Of a stretch of 64,000 nt of DNA, positions 43,160 to 58,279 are shown one piece after another. Below the pieces are notes generated by a model. It made no database searches, was not told the origin of the DNA, and saw only the letters and a program-made list of their open reading frames with translations. The position numbers and the translations under genes were made by a program. Within the stretch, counting starts at the first letter, position 1. Each line of letters opens with the position of its first letter. Origin of the DNA: a virus. The stretch lies in the IMG/VR virus record IMGVR_UViG_3300045988_057025; one strand, 5' to 3'.

Positions 43160-43362
43160 TTTGTTAACTTATCAATTACATTTACTATAGATTCTTCTCC
43201 AGCTATGAAACCAGCTCTATGAGCATTCATAATAAGTTTCTTCAAACTTTCTAGCTCCTCTTTTGACTTAAGAGTATTGCTAGTATAAATCTCTACTAGT
43301 TCTTTTATGTATCTTTCCATATCAAAACATTTTATAGTACCCGAAGTGGGACTCGAACCCAC
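43156..43362 (-). CDS. hypothetical protein
   Basis: 68 aa ORF. Confidence 0.3.
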   Translation of the reverse strand: MGSSPTSGTIKCFDMERYIKELVEIYTSNTLKSKEELESLKKLIMNAHRAGFIAGEESIVNVIDKLTK

Positions 43363-43422
43363 ACGCCCTCAATGGGCATCAGAGCTTAAATCTGACGTGT
43401 CCACCAATTCCACCATCCGGGC
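43338..43422 (-). tRNA. tRNA-Leu(TAA)
   Basis: cloverleaf; anticodon loop TTTAAGC; long variable arm; T-loop GTGGGTTCGAGTCCCAC. Confidence 0.8.
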
Positions 43423-43538
43423 ATATGGTAGCTATTCTCACGAACCGCTACCGAGAGATAATCCTAAAGTATCATTTTTCTAATCTTCTTACTAGATTAG
43501 TCTCCGAATTGTTAAATTCAAAGTTAAAAACTGTTAAC

Positions 43539-43850
43539 TTACTTAAACTGTAGACAGGTGTTAATAAACTTATCAACATCAGTTCCACAATCAATATAGT
43601 TAGGGGTAACTTTTTCAAAGTATCTTAGATTAGCTTCTGTGCCTATTAACCCAAGCTCTTCAAAATCGTAACCCTCTCCATGAATATCAAAGGGTAGTCC
43701 AGGACTGAATGTCAACCAGGCTACTCCTTCAAATTCGCAACAAATACAAACTGTCAACCCACTTTCTCTTAGTCTGTCTAAGATTTGTGGACTGACAGTC
43801 TTTAATACTACACACTCACCCGAGTTCGGCGAGTCTCCGTTTGATTTCAT
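43539..43850 (-). CDS. hypothetical protein
   Basis: 103 aa ORF. Confidence 0.3.
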   Translation of the reverse strand: MKSNGDSPNSGECVVLKTVSPQILDRLRESGLTVCICCEFEGVAWLTFSPGLPFDIHGEGYDFEELGLIGTEANLRYFEKVTPNYIDCGTDVDKFINTCLQFK

Positions 43851-44190
43851 CTTCGGACAAGCTTTCTAACTTCTCAGATTGTTTCTTAGCTAACAGTTCC
43901 GTCAGGCGAGCCTTTTCAGCAGCCTTATTCTTAGCTGTCTCTCTATCAGCCTTCTCTTTTAGCTTATCCGTTATAATCTCCTTCACAATATTGAACTTCA
44001 ATTCAAGTTCGGTATTGCTGGGAGTATCATTAGTTATGAAAGACTTTCTTGGACTTTTAGCTAGTTCCTCATCGTAAGAAACGGCTAATTTATCCAATAC
44101 TGGCAGGCTCAAGTCCCACAAATCTTCTACACTCAGATTACCTTTACTAGTTGCGAAACGCAACTTCATTTTTGACGCTTGTTTAAACAT
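43816..44190 (-). CDS. hypothetical Lys/Glu-rich protein
   Basis: 124 aa ORF. Confidence 0.3.
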   Translation of the reverse strand: MFKQASKMKLRFATSKGNLSVEDLWDLSLPVLDKLAVSYDEELAKSPRKSFITNDTPSNTELELKFNIVKEIITDKLKEKADRETAKNKAAEKARLTELLAKKQSEKLESLSEDEIKRRLAELG

Positions 44191-44192
44191 AA

Positions 44193-46208
44193 TTAGAAAA
44201 TGATTTTAAATGATTTATTATCAACTTTTACAACAACATCATTGTGTGATGTGCTAGAAAATCCCAATCCACTCAACTGGTCATCACTGTACTCAGCTTT
44301 TGCTCTAGAACCAAGAGCTTCAAACACTCTTCTATGCTCCTTTTCAAGGTCAGCTCTCAGATATTCATTAAAGAAACCTCTAACAGGGTCTGGATTCTTG
44401 CATCCATCTATCATAAAGAACAGATGCTTGTTTCCTATAGCGTTGCCTTCCCAATGATTAGGAGAGAACATAATACAAGAAACCTTCTGGAATTTCATTG
44501 TATCAATTCCCCACTCGTTAGTAGATTTGAACGATGTAGAACCCTCTTTAATAGTAGGAGTCATGGAAATGTTTCTTTGTCCATCAACATGGATACGAGC
44601 AACTTCAATGTATTCCTTGCTCAGAACTACTTTTCCATACTGGAATTTGTGAAGTTCTCCATTAATCTCGATTTCCATTTCGAAACCAAAATCAATACTT
44701 TCCCTCTTATAGAAGTTATGCACTCTTACCACATAATCTCCCGGTCTTAGTCTGCTAGGGTCTGTCCATATGATGTTCTCAACAGCATCTCTAGTTTTTC
44801 CGGAACCTGCATTCATGTCAACATCAAGAGTTCCTCCAGTATAACCAGTTTTGCTTCCATAATAGATTTCTCTTCCACCAGGTTCGGTTACATGAAGGTC
44901 AAGGTCATCATAGTTAAACCAGTGAAGAGAGCATCTCATGAAACCGTCTACATTTCCACCAGCAGCCTTTACCTTCTCCTTGAAGGAATCGGCTACAGAA
45001 CCATTATAAACCCAAGCAAAGTTGTTATTCCACTTAAACAACTGTCCAGCATCCGGATTTTCAGGAGCAGTCAGAGTAACAAAGTTGGGAATATGTCTGT
45101 TCTCTACCAAGATAGAAACCTCCTTAGCTCCTGGAAGTACATTCTTGACAAAGGCATCAGCAGAAACTTCTTGGGCTTTGGTAAACTCTTTTGGATTTAC
45201 TGTAGAAGTCTCAGAGAGCATATCAAACATTCCTCCCTTCATCTTTGCTCTAGTATCTCTATTTACGAATAGAACATCATTCACAGAAATATCTTCCACA
45301 TGAGCATGACGACGAGGAAGTGCATCAGTAAGACCTAGCTCTTCTACCTTCTTCTGAGCGGCTTCAATTTGTTTCTTAGTAATAAGAGCAGTAGGTCTCT
45401 TATAGTTAGCAGGAGCCATGATGTTTTCATACGCTCTTACGGCTTTCTCCAGATCTACACCATTGCTTAGATCAATAAGTAAAGTTCCCATAGCCGTATT
45501 TCTAATCTTAGCTATAGGAGACTTAAAGTTTAACCAGCAATAGTTAGTTCTTACTTCTGGACTCAGAGTTTGAGCAGTAACTAGTGTTCTTCTAAATTCC
45601 TCCAAACTCTTCAAGAACTCTGCACCTCTATAGAGATTATTTCCTTCTATAAGCTCAATAACAGTTTCAACTGCCTCCAGCTTAAGCTCGCTGATAGAGC
45701 GTTCAAATACCCCAGCTCTTGCTCTGACATCTCCCCTGTAACCGGCAGCAGAGTCAAAACCATGAACTCGCCTGTTGAACTTGAAGTTATTCGGAATAGT
45801 TACGTACAGATGTGTCCAAGTTCTAGTTGTTCCATCAGGGAGTAGTTGAACATTATGGTCACAACCATGAAATTCGTTCACATCTTGAATGAAGACATCT
45901 CCTATTCCAGCTTCCTTAACTAATTTAGCTAGAGCCTGTGCTGTTTTCTCGTATCCAGGAGTGTGCACATCATCCCAGAATGTTTTAGTCTTATATGTTT
46001 GAGGGTCAATCGCTACAACTTTACCATAATGCCGGATAAAAGATTTACAGGCATTGCAGTTATGGTCTTGTCTAACGGTTTCATCTTCAAACGACAGAAG
46101 ATAGCCCATCCAAAGGAGGTCTTTATCAACATTAGCAACAAACAGGTTTTCTGCAATCATATTATTGAAAGCAGCTTCTACATCTTTCTTAAAATTCTTA
46201 AATTCCAT
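44193..46208 (-). CDS. large hypothetical protein
   Basis: 671 aa ORF, no recognisable motif. Confidence 0.35.
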   Translation of the reverse strand: MEFKNFKKDVEAAFNNMIAENLFVANVDKDLLWMGYLLSFEDETVRQDHNCNACKSFIRHYGKVVAIDPQTYKTKTFWDDVHTPGYEKTAQALAKLVKEAGIGDVFIQDVNEFHGCDHNVQLLPDGTTRTWTHLYVTIPNNFKFNRRVHGFDSAAGYRGDVRARAGVFERSISELKLEAVETVIELIEGNNLYRGAEFLKSLEEFRRTLVTAQTLSPEVRTNYCWLNFKSPIAKIRNTAMGTLLIDLSNGVDLEKAVRAYENIMAPANYKRPTALITKKQIEAAQKKVEELGLTDALPRRHAHVEDISVNDVLFVNRDTRAKMKGGMFDMLSETSTVNPKEFTKAQEVSADAFVKNVLPGAKEVSILVENRHIPNFVTLTAPENPDAGQLFKWNNNFAWVYNGSVADSFKEKVKAAGGNVDGFMRCSLHWFNYDDLDLHVTEPGGREIYYGSKTGYTGGTLDVDMNAGSGKTRDAVENIIWTDPSRLRPGDYVVRVHNFYKRESIDFGFEMEIEINGELHKFQYGKVVLSKEYIEVARIHVDGQRNISMTPTIKEGSTSFKSTNEWGIDTMKFQKVSCIMFSPNHWEGNAIGNKHLFFMIDGCKNPDPVRGFFNEYLRADLEKEHRRVFEALGSRAKAEYSDDQLSGLGFSSTSHNDVVVKVDNKSFKIIF

Positions 46209-46218
46209 TTTAAATCTA

Positions 46219-46440
46219 TTAAGTGTTCAACTTTTTGTTCATTTCTCCTTCTAAATTCCTAAGAGTTTCTATACTCTCCTCATAGAACTTATCCTTACCT
46301 AATTCACAGACTTTGTAATTAGATAATATTTGCTGGAATCGCAAATGTGGACTACATTCTATGATTTGAGCTAGTCTAGTTAAAATCTTAAAGTTAGCTT
46401 GTTTTCTAAGCTCAATAGCCTTTTCAATCTGGGCTTCCAT
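46219..46440 (-). CDS. hypothetical protein
   Basis: 73 aa ORF. Confidence 0.3.
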   Translation of the reverse strand: MEAQIEKAIELRKQANFKILTRLAQIIECSPHLRFQQILSNYKVCELGKDKFYEESIETLRNLEGEMNKKLNT

Positions 46441-46921
46441 ACTTGTTGATAATATCTAACTCTAATTCTTTAACCTTACTCTCATATAGAGAATCTTCGG
46501 CATATCCAATCCTATCTAGGAATCTATAATAGTCCTCTTCTGGATCGTACCTACTTAGAATAAATTGCTTATAAGCAAATACACAGCTTATCCAACTATC
46601 AAACTTGAAATAGGACATCGTTCTTGAATTATACAGTCCGAACAAATTATTGTTGTCCTTACAAAGTTTAGACTTGAAGTTACCAGATTCTAGAATAGCC
46701 TGAGCTGTTATGATAGCAGGACTTGGGAAATCATAGTGTTTAAGAGTATTATACAATACTTCCTCATTCACCTCCTCCATCAAATAGAATGGATGTTCCG
46801 GCATCAGCATAATTTTCTCCTCTGGAAACCTCGCAGAATGTATCCAGTGGTGCAAGGAATAACCAGTTGCAAATCCGAATACAATACTAATCATTAAAAT
46901 AATTAAAACTCTCTTTTTCAT
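46424..46921 (-). CDS. membrane-anchored peptidoglycan hydrolase (glucosaminidase-type lysin)
   Basis: 165 aa; N-terminal anchor; QAILESGNFKSK...NNLFGL matches FlgJ/glucosaminidase domain signature. Confidence 0.55.
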   Translation of the reverse strand: MKKRVLIILMISIVFGFATGYSLHHWIHSARFPEEKIMLMPEHPFYLMEEVNEEVLYNTLKHYDFPSPAIITAQAILESGNFKSKLCKDNNNLFGLYNSRTMSYFKFDSWISCVFAYKQFILSRYDPEEDYYRFLDRIGYAEDSLYESKVKELELDIINKYGSPD

Positions 46922-47214
46922 ATCTCAATAGAATTAATAAATCTTGCATCATTACATAGTTGATAAACAACTTTATCAAGTTCTGGGACATAGACTATAT
47001 AATAGTAATCAAAGAATTGGTTATTATCTTCGAACCCTATAATTATCCCTTTATGTCCACTATCTACCACACAGTCTCTAAATAAATATTTTGAAATATC
47101 TTGGCGGATGTCATCGTGGCCTGCCTGTAAAGCTGATATACCCCAGTAGGAAGTATTTGTACCCCTAACTTCCTTTCCTAATAAGTCCTTATCGTATGAA
47201 ATCTCAGTAATCAT
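46918..47214 (-). CDS. hypothetical protein
   Basis: 98 aa ORF. Confidence 0.3.
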   Translation of the reverse strand: MITEISYDKDLLGKEVRGTNTSYWGISALQAGHDDIRQDISKYLFRDCVVDSGHKGIIIGFEDNNQFFDYYYIVYVPELDKVVYQLCNDARFINSIEI

Positions 47215-47371
47215 GATGTTTTCTCAGGCTTATCCTTTTCTATGTTAACTACTATCATAAGCTCGGAATTAGGATTCTCACGATTCTTCGCCTTCCTGGC
47301 ATCTTCTTCGGTATCATACTGACCTATAATGAATGGGATATTATTTCTGCACTTAATCAGGTAGTATTCCT

Positions 47372-47563
47372 TCATTTTTCAATTCCAAAATAACTCTTTA
47401 ATAATTCTATATTCCCTTCCTTAAGATGTCTTATAATAGCTTTTCTCTCCTTTTCATAGAGAATAATCTTGCTTTCTAAGATATTTATCTTATGGTTGAA
47501 ATTATTTTCATATTCTTCCAGAGCTTCGGCAATGACTTTAATCGCAGTACAATCCTTCATCAT
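47372..47563 (-). CDS. hypothetical protein (shortened to internal Met to limit overlap)
   Basis: table ORF 47372..47701 overlaps neighbour by 164 nt; internal start MMKDCTAIK gives 64 aa. Confidence 0.25.
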   Translation of the reverse strand: MMKDCTAIKVIAEALEEYENNFNHKINILESKIILYEKERKAIIRHLKEGNIELLKSYFGIEK

Positions 47564-47987
47564 ACTCTTCGTTATAATAGTCCTCGCTTCCACTATCATC
47601 TCCGATAGGATTCTCCCAGCCATACTTTTCCGCAGTAGCCTTAAATAATGGCAAATACATAGCATAGTTATCCTCTGGATAATCCTCCAAGCCTTCCTCA
47701 AGAACTCTATTCCATCTAAGAACTACAGCAAACATCAGACTTGCAGAAATACCTCTCTTGTCAAGGGCTTTTTCAAATCCGAACTCTACATCTTCTTTAA
47801 GTTGGGAAAGAATATTCTCTCTAGTCCACTCTTTGGGTTCAGGATAAGGTTCATCACTATTCCACTTAAAACCTATTTTCTCTAACTGTTCCTGTGTCAG
47901 AAATTGAGCTAATCTAACTCCAAATCTATCGTCAAGAAATACAGACCATTCTTCGTAATTGTTTACGATTTCATCTAATGTTTTCAT
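47538..47987 (-). CDS. hypothetical acidic protein
   Basis: 149 aa ORF. Confidence 0.3.
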   Translation of the reverse strand: MKTLDEIVNNYEEWSVFLDDRFGVRLAQFLTQEQLEKIGFKWNSDEPYPEPKEWTRENILSQLKEDVEFGFEKALDKRGISASLMFAVVLRWNRVLEEGLEDYPEDNYAMYLPLFKATAEKYGWENPIGDDSGSEDYYNEEYDEGLYCD

Positions 47988-48313
47988 TATAATTCAGACA
48001 AATAAATGTTTTGAGGATATTCGTTAAATACTAGTAGAGTTACTGGACAAATCCAAACTCTATCGTTATAATTCTTACTTTTACACAAGTAAGTAGCTCC
48101 ATTCTCATCTTCTTCAATCTTAGATAGAACAATCTTAGCTACAGAAGGGTCAACCATCTGCAACCTAACAAATCTATCATCAAGAGAATCAAGAAGATCG
48201 TCAGCCCCGCCAACCATAGCCAACTCTCCTGGGTCTCCATCGAAGTCTGGCCACCAATAAAACCAGACTCCTCCCACTTTTACAAATTCAAATGTTTTTC
48301 GCATTAAACACAA
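47987..48313 (-). CDS. hypothetical protein
   Basis: 108 aa ORF. Confidence 0.3.
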   Translation of the reverse strand: MCLMRKTFEFVKVGGVWFYWWPDFDGDPGELAMVGGADDLLDSLDDRFVRLQMVDPSVAKIVLSKIEEDENGATYLCKSKNYNDRVWICPVTLLVFNEYPQNIYLSEL

Positions 48314-48324
48314 ATTAAATTAAA

Positions 48325-48359
48325 CAAAAAATACCCCAACAACTTTCGCTGCTGGGGTA
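48325..48359 (-). terminator. rho-independent terminator downstream of tRNA-Glu
   Basis: TACCCCA-loop-TGGGGTA hairpin followed by T-run on minus strand. Confidence 0.5.
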
Positions 48360-48364
48360 CATAG

Positions 48365-48436
48365 TAACGCCAACGGGATTCGAACCCGTATGGCAGGCGT
48401 GAAAAGCCTGAATCCTAACCATTAGATGATGGCGCT
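48365..48436 (-). tRNA. tRNA-Glu(TTC)
   Basis: anticodon arm CAGGC-TTTTCAC-GCCTG; T-arm ACGGGTTCGAATCCCGT; acceptor AGCGCCA/TGGCGTT. Confidence 0.8.
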
Positions 48437-48439
48437 ATC

Positions 48440-49114
48440 CTACTGCACAATCAAGCTATAAGCTTCTTGCAACAGTTTAATAGTTGGAACCATACGGTTA
48501 TCAACAACTATTATTTTATAAATGTTCAGAATTTCTTTGTAGGTTAAAGATGTACAAGTTAGAAATATCTGCACATCTTCGTTTACAGAACCATTTGACA
48601 ATCCTAAATCTACTTTAATCATACTGGGTAATGTCCCAATCTGAGAAATATCCCAAGTAGATTTAGTTCTCCTGAAAACTTCCCGCTGTTTGGAAGTAAG
48701 TTGCTTTTCTTTCAATCTAGACTCAATAATAGTACCATCAAACGTTAACGAACCTCCATCGGTATTACTATTATTTAATGCTAGCTGAATCTTCTGAACT
48801 GCAGAGTCTTTAGGTTTTGGCTTAAGTTGCACTCCTTCCTTCAAGCCCTTAATAATCTGCAATGAAGGAATAAAGTCTTTTATTTGAGTTGCATTCCATA
48901 CAAGAAATTTTCCAGGACTATCCTTAACAGTAACTATATACTTAGTCCCTCCGTTCAATGGAATAATCACTTGTAAGTCTGCATCACTCATTTTACTTAA
49001 ATGGTCTGATACTCTAACTTTGACGTTTCCAATGACAAAGTAGCGAGAAACAGTTGTTTCCGCTTCGATAATCTCAGTAGCAGTTGCTACTAAATACTTT
49101 TCTAATCTAGTCAT
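48440..49114 (-). CDS. hypothetical protein (TAG stop)
   Basis: 224 aa ORF ending in TAG 4 nt upstream of tRNA-Glu. Confidence 0.3.
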   Translation of the reverse strand: MTRLEKYLVATATEIIEAETTVSRYFVIGNVKVRVSDHLSKMSDADLQVIIPLNGGTKYIVTVKDSPGKFLVWNATQIKDFIPSLQIIKGLKEGVQLKPKPKDSAVQKIQLALNNSNTDGGSLTFDGTIIESRLKEKQLTSKQREVFRRTKSTWDISQIGTLPSMIKVDLGLSNGSVNEDVQIFLTCTSLTYKEILNIYKIIVVDNRMVPTIKLLQEAYSLIVQ

Positions 49115-49141
49115 AAAAATTAATCTAATTTAATGGTTAAG

Positions 49142-49214
49142 ATCCCCCACTCGGATTCGAACCGAGGTCTCGAGATTACAAATCACGTGTTCTAACCAAC
49201 TAAACTACAGGGGA
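49142..49214 (-). tRNA. tRNA-Thr(TGT)
   Basis: anticodon loop TTTGTAA, one mismatch in anticodon stem; T-arm CTCGGTTCGAATCCGAG; acceptor TCCCCTG/TGGGGGA. Confidence 0.7.
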
Positions 49215-49221
49215 ATAAATG

Positions 49222-49255
49222 CCGAGGCTGGGGGATTCGAACCCCAACCTTCACA
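49222..49255 (-). other. orphan tRNA 3' half (anticodon 3' stem + T-arm + acceptor 3' strand), diverged duplicate of the 3' half of tRNA-Asp
   Basis: TGTGAAGGTTGGGGTTCGAATCCCCCAGCCTCGG; pairs perfectly with acceptor and anticodon stem of the 5' half at 49915..49953. Confidence 0.55.
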
Positions 49256-49258
49256 GTG

Positions 49259-49320
49259 CCGAGAGTACCAGACTCGAACTGGTGACCTTCGCATAGACAG
49301 TGCACTATTCTACCACTGAA
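49259..49320 (-). tRNA. tRNA-Asp(GTC), intact copy
   Basis: CGAGGGT acceptor, D-arm GTTCAGTGGTAGAAT, anticodon loop CTGTCTA (pos 37 is U, one stem mismatch), T-arm ACCAGTTCGAGTCTGGT. Confidence 0.65.
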
Positions 49321-49341
49321 CTAACCCTCGGTGTAACTGGA

Positions 49342-49893
49342 TTACTCCAGACTAATTAAACCCTTCTCTAACATAATATGGTGATTCGGACATAACCATA
49401 CTAAATTATTCTCGTTGTTAATCTCCTTAATAAGAGTGTCTTCGTCAAATTCTAATATTCCTTTAAGATGATGTACTTCAAGTATTGCATCAAATTCATG
49501 ATTATGACAATATTGACATACTTTCTCACGTTCGGAACTTTCTAATACTCTACGAGCATTAGTCCTTATTTCTTGACATTTAGATGATAAGTACTTCTGC
49601 CCAGATGTATAATAACCTAATGTTTTGTTACCAATTCCATTAAGTTCTTCCCAGCAACTACGACACATTTCTGAATCTTTATGCTTAGGTTTACCACATC
49701 TAGGACATATCTTGTTTTCATCGTGCTTTATCCTACCTCTATTATTGTAAGAAGCAGCACACGAATGACTACAAAACTGTTTCTTCCTCACATCTGCGAC
49801 CCTCTGATTATCTAGTACTTCGATTACCTTACCACATTCCTTACAGTGGTTAGGATTCTCATAATACAATTTAAGAGATTGTTCTCGATTCAC
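49342..49893 (-). CDS. HNH homing endonuclease
   Basis: 183 aa, GTG start; Zn-finger CxxC pairs; C-terminal HNH motif VHHLKG...NLVWLCPNHH. Confidence 0.75.
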   Translation of the reverse strand: MNREQSLKLYYENPNHCKECGKVIEVLDNQRVADVRKKQFCSHSCAASYNNRGRIKHDENKICPRCGKPKHKDSEMCRSCWEELNGIGNKTLGYYTSGQKYLSSKCQEIRTNARRVLESSEREKVCQYCHNHEFDAILEVHHLKGILEFDEDTLIKEINNENNLVWLCPNHHIMLEKGLISLE

Positions 49894-49914
49894 AGATAAG
49901 TTTAATTAATTTTA

Positions 49915-49953
49915 ATGACAGTGTGATATGCAAGCCATTACACCACAGCCTCG
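49915..49953 (-). other. orphan tRNA 5' half (acceptor 5' strand, D-arm, anticodon 5' stem and GTC anticodon loop)
   Basis: CGAGGCTGTGGTGTAATGGCTTGCATATCACACTGTCAT; acceptor CGAGGCT is exact complement of AGCCTCG in 49222..49255. Confidence 0.5.
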
Positions 49954-50030
49954 AAAATGCAGGTATTTATCTCGTTACACCTGCGAGTCCGGCAATCCTT
50001 TCTTATATACCGCGTGAGCTGGCGGTTTTG

Positions 50031-50104
50031 TAGGGCTAATCAGACTTGAACTGATAACCTCCACATTATCAGTGTGGTGCTCTAACCAGTTGAGCTATAG
50101 CCCT
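50031..50104 (-). tRNA. tRNA-Ile(GAT)
   Basis: acceptor AGGGCTA/TAGCCCT; anticodon arm CCACA-CTGATAA-TGTGG; T-loop TTCAAGT. Confidence 0.8.
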
Positions 50105-50110
50105 ATTATG

Positions 50111-50671
50111 TGGACCTAACGGGAGTCGAACCCGTGTCCAAACAACCCTCGTTACAAGGATAACGTGCGTCTCATTTTTATTATATCAGCTAGGGAGTTC
50201 TAGCATTTAGGTAGTTTTATAAGTCTTACAAGAGTCCATACTAAGTATTTCTCTAGATGCTTATCTACAAGCTACCAAACTATAGGGCTGACCGAAGTCA
50301 ACGTTCCACCACTCCATTTACGTTGGAGAACGGAATGATACTTTAGAGATTCGTCACATCTCACGGAACACATCTTCCATCTGTTTTATGACATAGGAGA
50401 TTCAGTCTTACTAACTCTTAGAGTGTTCTGATTAAGAGCATATTACTAGGATTAGAGCCTAGCTCTCCATTATATCAATATACTCAACCTCTTCTGTTTC
50501 TAGGTCTCTCCCGTAACCCGACTTAGTTAATAGTGTCTACCAACAAGCCAGCAGCTTAGGCTGCCATTCTTACTTCGCTATAAGTAGCATTTATTATTTT
50601 CCTTCGTTTAAAGAGATTGCGCTCTACACGTCCTTATAATTCGTAATCGCCTGTCAAATCCAAGTAGGCCC
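50111..50671 (-). ncRNA. ssrA: tmRNA (SsrA)-like RNA, unusually long (~560 nt)
   Basis: 5' GGGCCTACTTGGATTTGACAGGCGATT matches tmRNA 5' consensus GGGGCUGAUUCUGGAUUCGACGGGAUUU; 3' GGACACGGGTTCGACTCCCGTTAGGTCCA matches GGACGCGGGUUCAACUCCCGCCAGCUCCA; G3-U70 pair; P2 pairing AAGGACGTG/CACGTTATCCTT; candidate tag ORF ...GCT ACT TAT AGC GAA GTA AGA ATG GCA GCC TAA (ATYSEVRMAA*). Confidence 0.6.
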
Positions 50672-50713
50672 ATGTTCCAGTTTATCTCTGATTAGAAAAC
50701 TGGAGAAAAGAAA

Positions 50714-50971
50714 TTATAGCATTATAGTTGAGCCAGGAGGCAAAATTGTGACCTTACAAGTAAGCAAACGACGCGTATCCTCAACAGTAAACAGCTTAGG
50801 ATAGCATAGACCGCTACGCCCACCAATGATAATTAAAGCATCTCCGTACCTCTGAACTATAGTTCCAGGCTCCATTTCCTCGTCACAGAACCAATTTACA
50901 ATCTCAGCTACATCTCCATCTTTCATATTTGTAAGATGTGTTGTGATTGTCTTATTAATTACTTTTGCCAT
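50714..50971 (-). CDS. hypothetical protein
   Basis: 85 aa ORF. Confidence 0.3.
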   Translation of the reverse strand: MAKVINKTITTHLTNMKDGDVAEIVNWFCDEEMEPGTIVQRYGDALIIIGGRSGLCYPKLFTVEDTRRLLTCKVTILPPGSTIML

Positions 50972-51533
50972 GTAAACACTGTTTTAATATTTCCTTAGTA
51001 ACTACTCTATCAGCTTCTCTAGATAGCTTATCCAACTTTTCTAAGTCAAACTCGCTAGACTGGAACTTAAATTGAATCCAAGTTGGTTCACTAGGTCTAT
51101 AGTCTAAATAAGTCTCACACTTATCAGTTCCCAAAACCTCATGCACCATAGCTAATATACGTTCACCAGCAGCTTTAGTTTTTACGAATCCAGATAAATC
51201 ATATCCAACACCTCTAGAACTCCAGTATTCTCCTTCCTCTGGACGAATGTCTTTTGGTTCCCAATGCCAGGCAGAAACACCGGACCTAGGATGAGCAATA
51301 CGATGAGCATACTCCATTACGGATTCCGAATTTGGATCAGAAGGATTCTCTGGATGAGAGCCATATTGCACTATGCCTTTTCCGTTATCACTTCTTATTT
51401 CGAATGTTAGTTTACAATGTCTGCAAGTTCCAGAGGTAACTCCTCCGCAAGAGAAACAACCACTGGTCACAGAATCACATCCACAATTAGGACAACCCCA
51501 TTCCTTAAATTCTGAGAATAATATAGATAACAT
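50955..51533 (-). CDS. hypothetical Cys-rich protein
   Basis: 192 aa; N-terminal CPNCGC...CFSCGG...CRHC cluster. Confidence 0.3.
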   Translation of the reverse strand: MLSILFSEFKEWGCPNCGCDSVTSGCFSCGGVTSGTCRHCKLTFEIRSDNGKGIVQYGSHPENPSDPNSESVMEYAHRIAHPRSGVSAWHWEPKDIRPEEGEYWSSRGVGYDLSGFVKTKAAGERILAMVHEVLGTDKCETYLDYRPSEPTWIQFKFQSSEFDLEKLDKLSREADRVVTKEILKQCLHGKSN

Positions 51534-51826
51534 TAGTAATTAGGTTTAAATTCTACTTCCTTTAATACAACATACATCTTACCATCCTTCTGTTCTATAC
51601 AACCATTGGCCTGTAGAAAATTAATTATAAAGTCCATAGGAATGTGGTAATTGTCAGTTACAAGCATACTGCCATCAATATGATAGCGTTCTTTTCTCTC
51701 TAATCTAGTGGGATTACCATTTATAGTAATCTCACCAGAACATTCATTATCCTTATCTGGTTTAATTCCCTTTATGTAAATAGAATAACCAGCTTCAGCT
51801 AAATAAACTTGTTGTATTACACTCAT
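51533..51826 (-). CDS. hypothetical protein
   Basis: 97 aa ORF. Confidence 0.3.
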   Translation of the reverse strand: MSVIQQVYLAEAGYSIYIKGIKPDKDNECSGEITINGNPTRLERKERYHIDGSMLVTDNYHIPMDFIINFLQANGCIEQKDGKMYVVLKEVEFKPNY

Positions 51827-52248
51827 AGTTTTGGAACATCAGAACGGTTATCATGATAGCCCTCGTCCCCAACAAGTTGGGCTAAACAACCGTGCATATA
51901 AGGAACAAGTTCGGGTTTCTCCTTATAACACCTGTATAGCATCCAACTCATGCTCATAGAGTTTCCACTATGACCATTATCAAAGTACGGAAGTTTGTCT
52001 TTGATAGCCTCAATCAGCTCAAATAAGCTAGGATATTTCTCATAGAAGGCTTTACATTCCTCTAGACTCATTTCTTTGAAAAACTCGGTAAACGATAAGG
52101 CCTGCTTTATACAACCCATTTCATAACCAAATAGGTCATTTTCTTCAAATGTACCATCACCAGCTTCAATGAATAAACGATTGAAACGTTCGATTCTCTC
52201 CTGAAATTCTTTCGGAAGAGATTCCTTTGTAAGATTCTTGAAATCCAT
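51823..52248 (-). CDS. hypothetical protein
   Basis: 141 aa ORF. Confidence 0.3.
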   Translation of the reverse strand: MDFKNLTKESLPKEFQERIERFNRLFIEAGDGTFEENDLFGYEMGCIKQALSFTEFFKEMSLEECKAFYEKYPSLFELIEAIKDKLPYFDNGHSGNSMSMSWMLYRCYKEKPELVPYMHGCLAQLVGDEGYHDNRSDVPKL

Positions 52249-52279
52249 AATCTAATTTTAATTGTTAAAAATAACTTAG

Positions 52280-52352
52280 TAACGGGAGTCGGATTCGAAC
52301 CGACGACCTTCAGGTTATGAGCCTGACTAGCTACCTCTGCTATCATCCCGCG
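52280..52352 (-). tRNA. tRNA-Met(CAT), first of three CAT tRNAs (Met/fMet/Ile-lysidine not resolved)
   Basis: anticodon arm TCAGG-CTCATAA-CCTGA; T-arm GTCGGTTCGAATCCGAC; D-stem TAGC/GCTA; imperfect 1-72 pairing. Confidence 0.65.
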
Positions 52353-52560
52353 ATATTACAAATGCTTTTTAATTAGTTTACAATGATTATACTCTCCTCC
52401 CCATCTAATAGGAAACTCTTTTTCCTTAGCCTCTTTATACTTCTCTGCCTGTTTCTTGTCTAAGAAGATTTGGCAATCAGTTTCATAATTTTGAGGAGCA
52501 TTAGCTGGTGATAATTTACTACAACTACATATACTTTCATAATTTTTTAAATAAAGTTTG

Positions 52561-52633
52561 TGGACACGCAGGGACTCGAACCCTATCTTCCGGTGTGCAA
52601 AACCAGCGCTCTAGCCATTTGAGCTAACGGCCC
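52561..52633 (-). tRNA. tRNA-Ala(TGC)
   Basis: acceptor GGGCCGT with G3-U70; D-arm GCTCAAATGGCTAGAGC; anticodon loop TTTGCAC; T-loop TTCGAGT; lower acceptor stem pairs poorly. Confidence 0.6.
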
Positions 52634-53162
52634 ATTTTTGGGATTTTCTTTTTAATTGGTGACATACCCATAAATTTCCACTGTTAAGATTCCATAACTT
52701 AACAACACCAGATAAGTTTTTTTTGTTTGAATCATGTTCTAGTAGCATAAGTTCGCAACCATGCTACTCTCTCAGTTCATCGACTATCGTGTCAGAAAAG
52801 GTCTCTATGATTTCGCAGGGACTGGCTTCAACTTAAACCCCGAATGGATTTTTACCTTGCCAGGTCAGGATATTATTACGTTTCTAGCACTCTGAATTGA
52901 TTTAGCCTGTTTAATCTTATAATCACGAACTACTTCTTTCATATAAGAGTTAAATTCCTTCATGTCTTTCCATGAAATCTCATTAGCTAGTTTTGGAGTT
53001 TGAAACATTTTGTACTTTTCTAATAGGTCTTTCATTTCTCTCTTTAGTTTTCAAAGCATTTTCACACGCTTGTTTCTTCATTACATATGGACAATCACAA
53101 TTTCCACTGTAGTACCAACAACAATAATCACACTGATGCATAATCTAATATAAGGTCAATAG

Positions 53163-53234
53163 CTGGGGCACATGGACTCGAACCATGATTCTTTGATTAA
53201 CAGTCAAAAGTTCTGACCTTTGAACTATACCCCA
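53163..53234 (-). tRNA. tRNA-Asn(GTT)
   Basis: acceptor TGGGGTA/TGCCCCA; anticodon arm TTTGA-CTGTTAA-TCAAA; T-arm CATGGTTCGAGTCCATG. Confidence 0.8.
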
Positions 53235-53479
53235 ATAGTTAATTTTCTCCACGGGTGTAGATAAGTACCCCTTTGGTACTTACCTTTTAGTAGTATCTTT
53301 ACTCTAGACCTCTATAAGGAGGCGGAATAGTTCCAGAAACTAACCATGTATAGCTCTTAGAACTCTGTTCAAAATACCACTTAGCAGCTTTCTTCACAAC
53401 ATTAATTACTTTCTTCATAACATCAAAGTTTAAAATTGTTAATAATTAATCTAATTCAGAGCCACAAAAGGAGTTTCGT

Positions 53480-53557
53480 TGCGGAGGTAGGATTCGAACC
53501 GTTTATGACGATTTCTAGGTTATGAGCCTAGCGAGATGACCACTTCTCTACTCCACG
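53480..53557 (-). tRNA. tRNA-like gene with CAT anticodon (initiator-like C1xA72 mismatch; irregular T-arm)
   Basis: acceptor CGTGGAG/CTCCGCA; D-arm GAGAAGTGGTCATCTC; anticodon arm CTAGG-CTCATAA-CCTAG; 11-nt variable region and only 2-3 bp T-stem around TTCGAAT. Confidence 0.45.
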
Positions 53558-53982
53558 ATATTGGCAGCTACTTTACATCCGCTACCCAGGGATGCCTCTA
53601 TCACCAGTGAGGCACGGACTATTCTAACCGTATAGCACGACTGGTTGGTAACGTCTCCAGACACGGCATTTAGACTGAAAATGTCGAAACAGTGATTTAA
53701 AGATTAAATAGGCTCTGGAAGATATTTCCAAATGTAGCCATACTATGATTTGGTTTTATTCTTACAGCATCCTATAATATGACTCTATGCAGATTTATTG
53801 TCAGTAATTCCGTTATTAATTAACCATTCCTAAGCTTCTCTGGAACCAAAGAATACCTGTATAAAATTACCTGCTAAGTCATACTAAGCAATTAACTTTG
53901 CGTTACTTTTTCTAATTTTTATATTATTTGCCTTCAAAACTTTGTAAATAGTGTCTTTACAGCACCCTATTTTTTCTTGTAT

Positions 53983-54339
53983 CTAAGAACTAGTATATCC
54001 CAATCTAGCTAATTCTACAATTTCACTATGATTGTATAGAATAGTGCCATCTCCTCCTTTAGAGGCATTGTACCCATTAGAACCATAAGTTCCTAGCTCT
54101 TTTATCCAATAGATTTCTCTTTCAGATAATTCAGAGTTACTATCTACATATTCCAATTCCTCTATCATAAAGTTCTCAACACCATACTTATTCATGGCAT
54201 CATATAAAGGTCTTTTGTTGCATCTTTCTTTCTAAAAGTCATAACAATGTTCCTTCCAGCGCTCTTCTATAGAAGTAGTAGTTTTTCCTACGTATCGCTT
54301 GCTATTAATTAAATTTGTAATGCAATAAATATATGCCAT
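53983..54339 (-). pseudogene. GIY-YIG homing endonuclease interrupted by in-frame TAG codons
   Basis: MAYIYCITNLINSKRYVGKTTTSIEERWKEHCYDF-TAG-KERCNKRPLYDA MNKYGVENF...NASKGGDGTILYNHSE...; table ORFs 54232..54495 and 53983..54195 are the same frame separated only by TAG at 54232-54234; second TAG at 53983. Confidence 0.55.
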
Positions 54340-54359
54340 ATTTTTAAATTTAAAATTAG

Positions 54360-54444
54360 AATCCGTGGAGGGATTCGAACCCTCATTAAAGATTTCTCTT
54401 TTCAGTTTTGCAGACTGATGGCTAAACCATTCACCCACACGGAT
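54360..54444 (-). tRNA. atypical tRNA with GCA (Cys) anticodon and a long hairpin variable arm
   Basis: acceptor ATCCGTG/CACGGAT; anticodon arm TCAGT-CTGCAAA-ACTGA; variable arm AAAGA-GAAA-TCTTT (5-bp stem); T-arm GAGGGTTCGAATCCCTC; 85 nt. Confidence 0.5.
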
Positions 54445-54445
54445 A

Positions 54446-54748
54446 TTAAGATTTAAAGTACTTCTCTCTAAATGGGATATTAAATAATGAATCATTAATA
54501 TCCTTATCAGTTATTTCCCTACCTAGAGCCTTCTCCGCACATTCGCTACAGATAAACACATGGTGGTCTGGATAATAATCTTTACCTCCCCCTTTGTAAT
54601 AAGAGGAGAATTTCTTTGCAGCTTCTTTTTCAAAATTGGTTAGCTTAAAGTAATTTATTATCTTGTTCCAAACCTCATCAATAAACATTGGAGAGTTATG
54701 GTCTCCATAATAAAATTCTTTATTACATACTGTACACTTTATTTTCAT
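54446..54748 (-). CDS. hypothetical zinc-ribbon protein
   Basis: 100 aa; CTVC...CSEC pairs. Confidence 0.3.
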   Translation of the reverse strand: MKIKCTVCNKEFYYGDHNSPMFIDEVWNKIINYFKLTNFEKEAAKKFSSYYKGGGKDYYPDHHVFICSECAEKALGREITDKDINDSLFNIPFREKYFKS

Positions 54749-54763
54749 AAAACTTAAATTTTG

Positions 54764-54835
54764 AGTAGGTAATGAGAATCGAACTCACATCCTCGGCATG
54801 GCAAGCCGATGCACTAACCGTTGTGCTATACCTAC
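54764..54835 (-). tRNA. tRNA-Gly(GCC)
   Basis: perfect acceptor GTAGGTA/TACCTAC; anticodon loop TTGCCAT; T-arm GTGAGTTCGATTCTCAT. Confidence 0.8.
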
Positions 54836-54841
54836 AAATGT

Positions 54842-54916
54842 GCAGATAGAGAGACTCGAACTCTCCCCTTCAGATTGGAAGTCTGACGTGCTCAAACCAT
54901 TAACACCACATCTGCA
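54842..54916 (-). tRNA. tRNA-Gly(TCC)
   Basis: acceptor GCAGATG/TATCTGC; anticodon arm TCAGA-CTTCCAA-TCTGA; T-arm GAGAGTTCGAGTCTCTC. Confidence 0.8.
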
Positions 54917-54952
54917 TAAGGAGAGTTATACGATACTCTCCTAAACGCTATC

Positions 54953-55294
54953 TTAAGATAGTAATTCCTGTGCCTCAATCTCGCCGATTATTTTAGTAAC
55001 CGCAATCTTGAACGGATTTCCCTTAGTCTTGTCAAACAGATGTACATCACGTACCTCGTCAACCTTGTCAGGAACATTCACCTTTCTTTTCCCTCTCTCT
55101 ATGGTCTTCCAAGTGATGACTTCGCACCGTTTCACGTCATAAACGCTATCGTTGCGGTCTACGTAGACCTTGAAGAAGTTCTTCTTATGCTTCACAATCT
55201 CAACTCTTTTAAAGTTTTTGATGTTAGCACGAAATTTCAAATCGCATTTTCCATTAGGTAAGAAAATCAATTCTGCCATAATGATACTCCGCAT
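54953..55294 (-). CDS. hypothetical protein
   Basis: 113 aa ORF. Confidence 0.3.
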   Translation of the reverse strand: MRSIIMAELIFLPNGKCDLKFRANIKNFKRVEIVKHKKNFFKVYVDRNDSVYDVKRCEVITWKTIERGKRKVNVPDKVDEVRDVHLFDKTKGNPFKIAVTKIIGEIEAQELLS

Positions 55295-55415
55295 AGTCGG
55301 AGATTCAAAGTTAAACTATGTTAATTCCAGTCTTTCGTCTGGCACTCCACCTCGTTTTAACCAATAGCTACTGTTCTTCACTACTTGAGCTAAGCTCTAA
55401 ACTGGGATAAAGGTA

Positions 55416-55799
55416 TTATTCTATATACATAAATGGTTTTCCAAATTCTTGCCTGAAAGACTCAAGCCAGCCTTCCATTTCCTCATCACTATCAAAATAG
55501 ATAGACTCATCATGTCTCTCAGAGAACTCTAGAATAATATGCGGCTTCTGGTATACTATTCCATCCTTGTAGAAGGACGTTCTCTTACTAATTGATTCGA
55601 GCATCCCTTTCTCAGAGTAAGTCCCAAAGCATGGGTCTAGAAGATACCAATAATCAATATGCCTTTTCCAGAATAAAAATTTGGTATCCGCTATTCTATG
55701 CTTCCATTCTGGATGTTTTCTAGTTTTAAAAACTAGTATCCTCTTTATTAAATTTCCATTAATATATTTATTCATAATTAATCCCAATATTCTGGACAA
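55416..55799 (-). CDS. hypothetical protein
   Basis: 127 aa ORF. Confidence 0.3.
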   Translation of the reverse strand: MSRILGLIMNKYINGNLIKRILVFKTRKHPEWKHRIADTKFLFWKRHIDYWYLLDPCFGTYSEKGMLESISKRTSFYKDGIVYQKPHIILEFSERHDESIYFDSDEEMEGWLESFRQEFGKPFMYIE

Positions 55800-56206
55800 T
55801 CATCTGTCGTTAATAATCCTTTCTCGCATAGACCTCCATCATAGAATATACATGATGAGCATGAAAGATTGTCCCTGGACTCATATTCCTGAATACCTTC
55901 CTGGATATCTTTCTTAGCCTTATATCTATCTTTTCTATTCTCTTTCTTATATTCGTACTGCATCATCTTACTTCTGTAGGGAGAAGTGCAATTCTTAAGC
56001 ATTTTGGCATACTTGGAATCATTAAGAAAATCCGTAATTGATTCACAAATTCTCAGTGCTCTATTTCTGAAAATAGGAACATTATACTGAACACTGGCTT
56101 TAATTCCGTTTACCGGGATATAGAACTTCCCGCAAGAGTTATAAACTTTTTTAGCTCTAGAAATCCACTTTCTTTTAGAAAGCTCTCTTCTTAATTTTCT
56201 GTCCAT
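55778..56206 (-). CDS. hypothetical basic protein (trimmed to internal Met to clear tRNA-Cys)
   Basis: table ORF 55778..56437 runs through tRNA-Cys; Met at 56206 gives 143 aa. Confidence 0.3.
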   Translation of the reverse strand: MDRKLRRELSKRKWISRAKKVYNSCGKFYIPVNGIKASVQYNVPIFRNRALRICESITDFLNDSKYAKMLKNCTSPYRSKMMQYEYKKENRKDRYKAKKDIQEGIQEYESRDNLSCSSCIFYDGGLCEKGLLTTDDCPEYWD

Positions 56207-56226
56207 AGGCAAATAAATTAGTGTAG

Positions 56227-56300
56227 AATCTGGAGTGGGATTCGAACCCACGAAACACGGTTTTGCAGACCGTTCCCTTAGACCACTCAGGCATCCAGAC
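56227..56300 (-). tRNA. tRNA-Cys(GCA)
   Basis: acceptor GTCTGGA/TCCAGAT; anticodon arm ACGGT-CTGCAAA-ACCGT; 5-nt variable loop; T-arm GTGGGTTCGAATCCCAC. Confidence 0.75.
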
Positions 56301-56327
56301 ATAAAGGGGAGACTAGCTCCCCAGTTT

Positions 56328-57512
56328 TTAGAGTACCAAAGAATCGTATCTTCCTGTACGATACAGAGATGGCTTACTGTTAGGATCTTTAATCCAGTAG
56401 TAGTTAATTTCGTTACCGTTCTTAGTAACAATAACATTCAACTTCTTGTCAATAGCGATAATCTCGTCACTGTAGAAGCCGTCTCCCACCTTAAGATTGC
56501 TGAACTTGGTAGAAGAGTAGATAAAGTAATACGACAGGTTGTGGAAGTTATGGCGACGATACTCATAGTATTCGTTGAGAGCTTTTCTTTCCTCCATAGT
56601 ACAGTTATCCTCATCGTTAACAATAGGCTTAGGTATAGGATTATTAAATCTCTCAACAGCCTTGGAGAAGTTCTCAATAGAGAACTTATTCTTGTCTTGC
56701 TCAATTTCTCCAGTGTAAGCATAACCTCTGATACAGGAATACTCATACTCATTAGTTACTACATTGAAGAAACTCTTAGCCTTTCTCAAACCTTCAATTC
56801 CATGAATGTTAACTTCATTAACTATAGTTTTGAGAATATCAATAGTTGATATGGTCAAAGAATCAATGAAGTCAAGCAAATCTTGACGTGCTTCTGGAAC
56901 TTCCAAGGCATCGTCTAGATATTCGTTTACAACCTTCAAATCAAGATTTTCAAACTTCTTGACGTAGCGGATTCTAGACGGACGTCCTACCATATTATCG
57001 TTGATAGACATTGCATTAGTAGTCAACAAGAATACCTTACGATACTTAGAGTTATAAACTCCATCCATAATTTGGAGGATTGTAGAATCCGACTCGCTGA
57101 AGTTCTTTTCAAACTCGTCTAGGAAGAGAACACAGTCTCCCTCAATGCCAGAGAGAAACTCAATCATAGATTGATTATGGTCTCCCATATCCTTTACTAT
57201 AATAACAGGAAGGTTCAATTTGTTAGCTAATTCTTTAGCTGTGACAGTCTTTCCAGTACCTTTTGTACCAGTAAGCATGATTCCCAAGTTTCCTTCCGTG
57301 TTACTATAAGTTTTGATTACATAGTCTATGAAATCTTCCTGCAGTCCATATATCTTGTACGGAAATACGAACTTGTCTGCATACTTATCCAGGTGATAAC
57401 CTGTCATTGTCAGACTAATACCGTAAATACCGACCGGAAGAGATTCCGAAACCTTGTAACCTGAGCCTACTTGGGTGTATGTAGACCCGGAACACATCCA
57501 AACTTTGTTCAT
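56328..57512 (-). CDS. AAA+ family ATPase
   Basis: 394 aa; Walker A MLTGTKGTGKTVTAKE; Walker B VLFLDEFE. Confidence 0.6.
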   Translation of the reverse strand: MNKVWMCSGSTYTQVGSGYKVSESLPVGIYGISLTMTGYHLDKYADKFVFPYKIYGLQEDFIDYVIKTYSNTEGNLGIMLTGTKGTGKTVTAKELANKLNLPVIIVKDMGDHNQSMIEFLSGIEGDCVLFLDEFEKNFSESDSTILQIMDGVYNSKYRKVFLLTTNAMSINDNMVGRPSRIRYVKKFENLDLKVVNEYLDDALEVPEARQDLLDFIDSLTISTIDILKTIVNEVNIHGIEGLRKAKSFFNVVTNEYEYSCIRGYAYTGEIEQDKNKFSIENFSKAVERFNNPIPKPIVNDEDNCTMEERKALNEYYEYRRHNFHNLSYYFIYSSTKFSNLKVGDGFYSDEIIAIDKKLNVIVTKNGNEINYYWIKDPNSKPSLYRTGRYDSLVL

Positions 57513-57743
57513 TTCTTTATTTTTAATTGTTATTTAATATGAATGTTTCAGAACATTCAGTTAATTAAAGTTCTCCACTGTCTTTGATAAGTTCTTTAGC
57601 CTTATCCATTCCAGCTTCGTAAGCCTCCACAACGTACTGTATAGCAGTTTTTGAATCAATCTGATTCATGGAGTTGCTATTTTCTACCAATTCTTGAATA
57701 ATTTCACTTAACTCTTTCATAATCTATAATCGAATAAAAGTTG

Positions 57744-57825
57744 TAGGGTAGGAGGGACTCGAACCCTCACACATTTCTGTACTAGATCCTAAGTCTAGCG
57801 CGTCTACCAATTCCGCCACTACCCC
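57744..57825 (-). tRNA. tRNA-Leu(TAG)
   Basis: anticodon arm CTAGA-CTTAGGA-TCTAG; long variable arm; T-arm GAGGGTTCGAGTCCCTC. Confidence 0.75.
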
Positions 57826-57829
57826 AAGG

Positions 57830-58279
57830 TTACAATTCCCTGTCTCTTATTTTCTCAGCCATAGTACACATCTCTTGATAATACTCGACTACCTTATTGA
57901 ACAATTCTTCAGGAACTATTGTACACTTTTCACTTCTCTGCCCAGGAAGCCAATAACGATTTATCATTCTCTTCTTTTCAAGACCTATTCTAGTTGTATT
58001 GCTATCTATAAAGACCTCATAGAAATCTTCTTTAATATCTTCTCTAAGGGCAGTAATATCTTTAGTTATCTTAAAATAACCAAATGATTGTCTATTGAAG
58101 TTTATTTGAAAGCATTTTCCCTCAAAACTTTTTAGAAGTTGATTATTTTCTTCTTCTTTTAGTCTCCTTCTTTCTGCTTCCTCTCTAGCAATATTATCTA
58201 AATATTCACAATACTCTTGAAGAGAACAGCCAGGATGCTTCCTGGCATATTCTTTCATTGGACTTTCTCTTGACCACAT
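57830..58279 (-). CDS. hypothetical protein
   Basis: 149 aa ORF. Confidence 0.3.
   Translation of the reverse strand: MWSRESPMKEYARKHPGCSLQEYCEYLDNIAREEAERRRLKEEENNQLLKSFEGKCFQINFNRQSFGYFKITKDITALREDIKEDFYEVFIDSNTTRIGLEKKRMINRYWLPGQRSEKCTIVPEELFNKVVEYYQEMCTMAEKIRDREL

Follow-up and report, generated by a model that had tools for sequence, protein, structure and literature searches.

A probably functional phage-encoded tmRNA with an expanded pseudoknot domain in a virus of the human gut

The tmRNA gene and its conserved parts

The window analysed here, a 64,000-nt stretch of DNA from IMG/VR virus record IMGVR_UViG_3300045988_057025, carries on its minus strand, at 50111-50671, a complete one-piece gene for transfer-messenger RNA (tmRNA, SsrA), 561 nt long from G1 to the discriminator A561. 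Its limits follow from the match to Rfam family RF00023 and from 23 aligned alleles; RNA position p corresponds to window coordinate 50672-p. A minus-strand tmRNA gene had been proposed here from the sequence letters alone (the original prediction), and every element listed then is found in its place. Across the whole 64-kb window, RF00023 gives a single tmRNA match (50108-50671, minus strand, model positions 1-374) of 62.3 bits, above the gathering score of 47, with E = 6e-22 for the full 64-kb window. The two detection methods named in the original prediction disagree: the covariance model spans the gene at full model length, whereas ARAGORN, which lists 19 tRNAs in the window, does not call a tmRNA at 50111-50671. 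No open reading frame (ORF) of at least 60 aa overlaps the gene on either strand. A permuted, two-piece tmRNA was also considered and rejected: RF04321 reaches 27.1 bits against a gathering score of 47, over a partial stretch only, and the gene order is standard.

The exact 5' 22-mer of the gene occurs in 32 IMG/VR contigs, as does the exact 3' 29-mer. Most of the related contigs come from one human-gut data set; the longest measure 185-192 kb, with one of 270 kb. Both ends are present at 28 loci, which represent 22 distinct alleles of 515-574 nt; a more diverged member obtained with a looser pattern (L064, 566 nt, 91 bits) completes the 23-allele alignment. RF00023 scores of the relatives range from 56 to 91 bits. 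GenBank holds just two relatives, the unannotated virome fragments L001 (MT837398.1) and L002 (MT836666.1), both of which end within the tmRNA gene, and distant blastn against the annotated phage collection found no similar tmRNA beyond these two. Strain-level differences among the pseudoknot modules may interrupt short-read assembly at the tmRNA gene, where both GenBank contigs end. Other long tmRNAs on viral contigs measure 511-512 nt (L060, L109, L142) and 681 nt (L191); the L060 type may be a host gene at a prophage edge, because an integrase gene lies ~2 kb away. In L064, a RAGATH-34 RNA (147-254, 118 bits) is found ~1.5 kb from the long tmRNA, and on a 72-kb viral contig (L052, 9321-9735) a GOLLD RNA (292 bits) lies ~900 nt downstream of a 408-nt tmRNA, beside a tRNA array.

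The tRNA-like ends are essentially invariant across the 23 alleles. The 7-bp acceptor stem P1 joins RNA 1-7 (GGGCCUA, 50665-50671) to RNA 554-560 (UAGGUCC, 50112-50118), and 7 of 7 pairs are unchanged in every allele, including the G3·U558 wobble, the equivalent of the alanine identity pair G3·U70; A561 is the discriminator (A73). In the Rfam alignment, the T-arm (RNA 537-553) and the acceptor 3' strand (554-560) together occupy 50112-50135. The T-arm loop UUCGACU is of the GGUUCGANUCC type, and the acceptor and T-arm pairs are 100% paired among the alleles, with two T-stem pairs altered on both sides in L064. P2 is an interrupted helix of 25 bp between RNA 19-46 (50626-50653) and RNA 504-533 (50139-50168), four pairs of which have changed on both sides. 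The tRNA-like ends, the G3-U70 pair and the joining of the two ends by P2 are thus all present as the original prediction had them.

Downstream of the discriminator the DNA reads CAT (A-C-A-U with A561; positions 50108-50111), so CCA is not encoded. The ACA end had been pointed out as a peculiarity; it is real and ordinary, because all window tRNA genes and most sampled bacterial tmRNA genes also lack CCA. All 19 of 19 tRNA genes called by ARAGORN (43337-63192) encode the discriminator N73 and C74, not C75-A76. The bacterial sample was obtained by scanning 185,579 species genomes with a 3' tRNA-like pattern, which gave at least 120 matches; among the matches listed, CCA follows 12 of the 120 bacterial tmRNA genes that share this 3' end and is missing from the other 108. 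Most tmRNA alleles (A-C-A-U) have the same type of end as the window tRNA genes. The recurrence of C74 without CA in 19 of 19 tRNA genes is far from chance and suggests a common 3'-processing or CCA-completion rule.

Between P2 and the pseudoknot domain lies the predicted tag reading frame, ATYSEVRMAA followed by UAA (50556-50588, minus strand; RNA 84-116), read as GCU ACU UAU AGC GAA GUA AGA AUG GCA GCC UAA. The resume codon GCU (RNA 84-86) stands in the context AAUAAAU|GCU, which aligns with the RF00023 consensus AAUAAuU|GCa. Helix 5 is the hairpin GGCAGC-CUAA-GCUGCU (50550-50565, minus strand; RNA 107-112/117-122), whose CUAA loop contains the stop codon; 100% of its alignment cells are paired. 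This tag, with its stop in a hairpin, had been read in the same way from the window alone, and the frame is kept in all alleles: each of the 23 has 10 codons, a GCN start and R-M-A-A plus a stop at the end. The variants ATYSEVRMAA, AAYSEVRMAA, AEIAPVRMAA and AEIDYNRMAA occur; the frame stays intact across a 15-nt in-frame cassette replacement, and three alleles have GCG-UGA in place of GCC-UAA, a synonymous change accompanied by a stop that is switched yet retained. At the position of pseudoknot PK1 (RNA 47-60, 50612-50625, minus strand), a 4-bp hairpin is supported (AGAG/CUCU, 47-50/57-60). No supported pairing was found for a second PK1 helix, which would have at most 2-3 bp, and 2 bp in the window allele.

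The enlarged pseudoknot domain

Length is the unusual feature of this tmRNA. The original prediction made it ~200 nt longer than its bacterial counterparts, and the comparison bears this out: 561 nt against 337-391 nt for the 90 bacterial genes that could be delimited among the matches listed, which come mostly from Lachnospiraceae and other Clostridia, with few Bacteroidota. The excess is explained by additional structured modules in the pseudoknot domain, which extends over 361 nt (RNA 123-483, 50189-50549, minus strand) between helix 5 and the 3' strand of P2. Here the PK2-PK4 region is expanded by ~200 nt into eight helical modules, several of them H-type pseudoknots: A (RNA 123-152), B (153-186), C (187-236), D (248-258), E (271-326), F (341-387), G (392-467) and H (468-483). 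All alleles were cut at ten conserved anchors and each piece was folded; this anchor-delimited analysis was used because non-homologous module replacement confounds both a global covariation scan and RNAalifold on the whole alignment.

Module A is a 13-bp hairpin with a G-C to A-U change, and module B is an invariant stretch that can form two mutually exclusive 5-bp helices, between which no choice is made because all bases involved are invariant. In module C, a stem of 6-10 bp forms at the same place from four unrelated sequences (GAGUAUAUU/AAUAUGCUC, AGGUAUACC/GGUAUAUCU, UGUAUCUAAG/CUUAGAUGCA and GUACAG/CUGUAC) and is capped, depending on the allele, by an H-type pseudoknot, a larger insert or a bare loop. 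Module D is a 4-bp hairpin, ACUC-UAA-GAGU or AGCC-AAA-GGUU by allele. The window type of module E consists of two hairpins with a possible loop-loop contact (279-284/315-320); other alleles have a compact H-type pseudoknot of ~30 nt with a covarying first stem (GCCUA/UGGGC, ACCUA/UAGGU). Module F contains, in order, a stem-loop, the invariant motif GUGGUGGA, a UUCG-capped hairpin and CCC. Module G is an 11-bp stem (GGUAG/CUACC, GAUAG/CUAUC, GGUGG/CUAUC), capped in some alleles by an H-type pseudoknot (AAGCGGA/UCCGCUU with GCUAGAU/AUCUAGC; GUAG/CUAC with GCUGG/CCAGC), and module H is a 5-bp hairpin. The pairings of the H-type pseudoknots in modules C, E and G were verified base by base, and their stems covary. 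Independent insertions and deletions in these same three modules account for the length differences among the alleles (515-574 nt): like expansion segments, modules are swapped, enlarged or trimmed independently of one another.

When the window structure (131 pairs in 19 helices) is mapped onto the 23-allele alignment, 92.1% of the cells hold standard pairs, against 36-45% in controls with partners slid by 1-3 columns, and 25 pairs have changed on both sides, against 3-10 in the controls. In 500 shuffles, neither the pairing nor the covariation score ever came up to the observed value. The C pseudoknot, helix E2 and the loop-loop contact, at sites taken up by non-homologous sequence in other alleles, have the least support. 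An independent RNAalifold run recovers P1, P2, helix 5, A, the outer stem of C, F, the outer stem of G, H and the T-arm.

The core module F ties the enlarged RNA to other viral tmRNAs. Its invariant GUGGUGGA motif (50305-50312, minus strand), preceded by a stem-loop with an ACNUAAA-type loop and followed by a hairpin and CCCUA, is common to viral-contig tmRNAs of 321-574 nt (L043, L155, L215, L230, L060, L109, L142). In L043, L155 and L215 (321-323 nt), module F is the sole element in the region; L230 measures 417 nt. The motif is absent from the 90 bacterial tmRNAs delimited among the matches listed. No conserved pairing partner was found for GUGGUGGA or for the loop of hairpin H.

Phage surroundings and competing explanations

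All genes in the window lie on the minus strand. Among 60 ORFs scanned, Pfam identifies PolA, an anaerobic ribonucleotide reductase (NrdD), DNA ligase, a Toprim primase, DnaB-like and SNF2-like helicases, RNase H, dUTPase and an HNH endonuclease; a CCA-adding enzyme and an integrase were sought in the same 60 ORFs and not found. A 671-aa protein matches phrog_1735 (E = 8e-242), and PolA is closest to Crassvirales enzymes, with 52% identity to that of IAS virus and 45% to that of Bacteroides phage PhiCrAssBcn. The GC content of the window is 0.33-0.42, and it has 19-21 tRNA genes. Two weak tRNA matches were noted, one at 52561-52633 (Rfam only, 39.5 bits) and one at 52283-52349 (44.5 bits), which overlaps an ARAGORN tRNA-Met. 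Crass-like phages of the Zeta group (proposed Echekviridae) have genomes of 145-192 kb, GC of ~30-37%, 17-34 tRNA genes and Crassvirales-type PolA/PolB (PMC12386605, PMC7886860), and their predicted hosts are mostly Bacteroides and Phocaeicola (PMC12386605). The size of the related contigs (185-192 kb), a GC content near 36%, the number of tRNAs and PolA agree with the Zeta table of PMC12386605. From its sequence, the source looks like a human-gut phage of the Zeta-group crAss-like type, a provisional placement given that the window lacks structural genes. An OmpA-family protein with an outer-membrane beta-barrel domain (38685-39701) suggests that the host has an outer membrane.

Six nucleotides past the tmRNA 3' end begins a gene for tRNA-Ile(GAU) (50030-50104, minus strand), called by both ARAGORN and Rfam; the order tmRNA then tRNA-Ile is kept in L004, L005 and L014. 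The 6-nt spacing and the kept gene order suggest co-transcription with the tRNA and maturation by tRNA enzymes. Upstream of the tmRNA, no convincing match to a sigma-70-type promoter was found. The window also encodes a sigma-70 family factor (3502-4347). Between tRNA-Ile and the HNH endonuclease gene lies a 74-nt intergenic element (49954-50027, minus strand) that is 97% identical to tRNA-Leu-adjacent intergenic DNA of crAss-like phage cr115_1 (NC_055898.1, 39049-39122). It contains a GCAGGUG...ACCUGC hairpin followed by UUUU at its end, has no Rfam match and is possibly a terminator that the two phages share, a small RNA or one end of a mobile element.

Further genes of the window include an RNA-repair-like set within or near the tRNA array, at 6536-7903, 58279-58695, 4720-5415 and 14951-15622: an RNA-ligase-like protein (weak match), a 2H/CPD phosphoesterase domain and two metallophosphoesterases, which may mend tRNAs cut by host anticodon nucleases. 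NAMPT and an NMNAT-like cytidylyltransferase (35015-36565 and 12971-13525) form an NAD+ salvage pair; such a pair is described for gastrointestinal jumbo phages (PMC11662467). Two proteins with SPFH/Band 7 domains are encoded at 37420-38247 and 60273-62246.

On sequence evidence, the window most likely encodes, at 50111-50671, a functional phage tmRNA of the standard one-piece form whose extra length is an expanded pseudoknot domain. The nearly invariant tRNA-like ends, the kept tag frame, the covarying helices and the phage-like surroundings lend independent support to its identity as a tmRNA, and the invariant ends and covarying helices in 23 alleles point to purifying selection. Several points weigh against this interpretation. 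The evidence that the tag frame is under selection is no more than suggestive, five random codons being free of stops ~79% of the time, and PK1 has shrunk to a 4-bp hairpin. The slid-partner control is biased towards the structure, which was taken from the window allele; the alleles are also close relatives, so that many covariation cells are single events inherited by many sequences. Neither tblastn with three SmpB sequences nor Pfam on the 60 ORFs found SmpB in the 64-kb window. Finally, an unprecedented density of introns and inteins is reported for Zeta crAss-like phages (PMC7886860), and an intervening sequence that escaped recognition is a priori more likely for that reason. In that case, a self-removing element outside the T-loop, for instance a small group I intron, would interrupt a tmRNA of normal size and leave a mature RNA of ~360 nt. 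The Rfam parse puts 213 nt into the PK4 region as one insertion, an HNH endonuclease gene follows ~220 nt downstream of the tmRNA, and introns outside the T-loop have possibly been missed systematically, according to the authors of the tmRNA database (PMC11915505). Yet the extra length is spread over at least five independently varying modules, and no allele lacks it as a block, all being 515-574 nt. Module F, inside the 213-nt "insert", is common to intron-free tmRNAs of 321-417 nt and so belongs to the mature RNA; the modules missing from relatives of normal length (A, C, D, E) total ~215 nt but are separated by conserved linkers, and a group I core would not fit into C and E alone. In L064, RF00023 puts the unaligned sequence elsewhere, with low posterior probability, so the single-insert parse is an artefact of the model rather than the anatomy of the RNA. 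The T-loop UUCGACU, the location of all known tmRNA introns, is uninterrupted. With no Intron_gpI, group II or ribozyme match either at the gathering score or at E <=10 on the 381-nt core, a group I or II intron or a ribozyme was rejected as the main explanation, and an intervening sequence of any kind is highly improbable.

A second possibility is that the RNA is made without tagging, as a decoy that titrates host SmpB, AlaRS (alanyl-tRNA synthetase) or ribosomes and shuts down host trans-translation. Such a role was proposed for the tRNA-like-domain-only molecule of mycobacteriophage DS6A, and a phage molecule of this kind is reported to inhibit tmRNA (PMC4131195, PMC11915505). The lack of an SmpB gene in the window would fit, as would the reduction of PK1, an aid to frame setting in E. 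coli, to just a hairpin. A decoy would need no tag features, however, and DS6A has lost them; here the full mRNA-like domain is kept, the resume context fits the model consensus, and the 10-codon tag, its RMAA end and the stop in the hairpin loop are preserved through a cassette swap and a stop switch. Because the tag frame is retained, a decoy is quite improbable. It is harder still to credit that the locus is a decaying or inert copy, i.e., a host ssrA pseudogene or an attachment (att) site, or that the contig is bacterial rather than from a phage. Temperate phages often have 3' ssrA fragments as att sites, the last ~35 nt are 92-97% identical to Lachnospiraceae-type ssrA, and an integrase gene is found ~2 kb from the long tmRNAs of the L060 type. 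The window gene, by contrast, is complete and no 3' fragment, it resembles the sampled bacterial ssrA genes only in the universal T-arm and acceptor region, the ORFs scanned have no integrase, and the conservation of ends and helices argues for purifying selection; the surroundings are a phage replication and tRNA module with PHROG and Crassvirales matches. These explanations are extremely improbable. Recent capture of a host ssrA was likewise rejected, blastn similarity to bacterial genes being limited to the last ~35 nt; for the same reason, the pattern scan identifies neither host nor donor.

Comparison with known systems, predicted action and significance

Like the standard bacterial tmRNAs of E. 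coli and Lachnospiraceae, the window RNA has a G3·U70 and A73 domain, a T-arm, a long P2, an A-rich resume context, a 10-codon tag with an alanine start and a hydrophobic-Ala-Ala end, and pseudoknots downstream of the tag; the stop in the helix 5 loop, within the same GCAGCC-UAA-GCUGC, recalls the Roseburia-type gene. Unlike them, it is phage-borne, measures 561 rather than 337-391 nt, has a 361-nt, eight-module domain in place of PK2-PK4 and only a hairpin for PK1, and shares no sequence similarity outside the last ~35 nt. The pseudoknot ring is the plastic part of tmRNA, and the number of pseudoknots downstream of the tag can vary without loss of function: e.g., in cyanobacterial tmRNAs, PK4 is replaced by tandem pseudoknots. 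Compared with those, the expansion in the window is much larger (~200 nt), includes long capped stems and differs among close alleles.

The original prediction called phage-borne tmRNAs rare, which they no longer are: reports now cover mycobacteriophages, phage G and many large phages (PMC4131195, PMC7162821, PMC12484599). Known examples are complete ssrA genes in large, tRNA-rich genomes, usually beside tRNA genes (PMC4131195, PMC12484599, PMC7162821), and the window gene resembles those of the mycobacteriophage Bxz1 group, phage G and the huge phages in being a complete ssrA in a tRNA-rich large genome. The known phage tmRNAs, which ARAGORN detected, are of ordinary size or short (that of Bacillus phage G has 308 nt and the tag AKLNITNNELQVA), whereas the window tmRNA is far longer, is missed by ARAGORN and belongs to a crAss-like lineage. 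In intron-form tmRNA genes, a group I intron sits in the T-loop (PMC11915505); here nothing interrupts the T-loop, and the extra sequence is scattered over separate modules. The DS6A molecule is also phage-borne but lacks a tag frame and pseudoknots; the window RNA keeps the frame and enlarges the pseudoknots. Some megaphages with a tmRNA also encode SmpB, unlike the 64-kb stretch of the window phage: in a tblastn search of the phage collection, genuinely phage-encoded SmpB is found only in megaphages (Lak phages and phages of 630-735 kb). Since the window has no SmpB gene, the partner is probably the host's.

From established tmRNA biology, we infer expression, charging, an SmpB partner, tagging and a benefit to the phage along the following lines. 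The tmRNA is probably transcribed jointly with the adjacent tRNA-Ile, and the precursor would be trimmed by tRNA-processing enzymes (RNase P and 3' nucleases). A CCA-adding enzyme would complete the 3' end; the relative Lera, a Zeta-group phage, encodes a CCA tRNA nucleotidyltransferase (PMC12386605). Host AlaRS would charge the RNA with alanine through G3·U70 and A73, and the charged RNA would bind SmpB, enter stalled ribosomes and let translation resume on GCU. The product would thereby gain A-TYSEVRMAA, with a hydrophobic-Ala-Ala end as in bacterial degradation tags, and the ...RMAA terminus would send it to proteases specific for C-termini. The likely benefit to the phage is that ribosomes are kept available during infection or that the fate of stalled products is redirected.

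Pharokka and most phage surveys rely on ARAGORN to call tmRNAs. The program correctly finds tmRNA genes of 358-420 nt. Of eight other long viral-contig tmRNAs tested, it also missed seven (L001, L005, L014, L064, L060, L109, L191) and called the 515-nt gene of L004 (3833-4347), with the implausible tag VQQKDDRATVLNLKAKG where comparative data indicate ATYSEVRMAA; with the window included, eight of nine long genes are missed and the ninth is given a wrong tag. In a Paludibacteraceae tmRNA (L283, 4559-4950), ARAGORN reports an implausible 22-aa tag, and the sequence itself indicates GENNYALAA. Because ARAGORN fails on long genes, literature counts of phage tmRNAs are probably too low. Since both phage tmRNAs and varying numbers of pseudoknots were known before, the finding is not of a new category; what sets it apart is that an intron-free tmRNA of distinctly excessive length occurs in a gut phage lineage that is abundant, and that it exposes a blind spot in the standard detection tool.

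Zeta-group phages bring large tRNA sets, and many use suppressor tRNAs that cause read-through of stops on host mRNAs. A wider proposal, unlikely as it stands, is that the enlarged tmRNA is a lineage-wide, unrecognised part of a translation takeover by this group, in which ribosomes stranded by read-through are freed and their products tagged with a phage degron. Read-through would then strand ribosomes at the 3' ends of messages, the phage tmRNA would free them and mark the products (...RMAA), and the fast-evolving modules together with the invariant GUGGUGGA could dock phage or host factors. The descriptions of the Zeta group in PMC7886860 and PMC12386605 make no mention of tmRNA or SmpB.

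The predicted function is open to a direct test, since gut metaproteomes would contain the tags ATYSEVRMAA or AEIAPVRMAA. An intron-free tmRNA of ~560 nt that varies module by module is a natural experiment on how far the pseudoknot domain can be remodelled. CrAss-like phages rank with the most abundant human gut viruses, and a conserved, apparently selected tmRNA would add ribosome rescue to the host functions that these phages supply.

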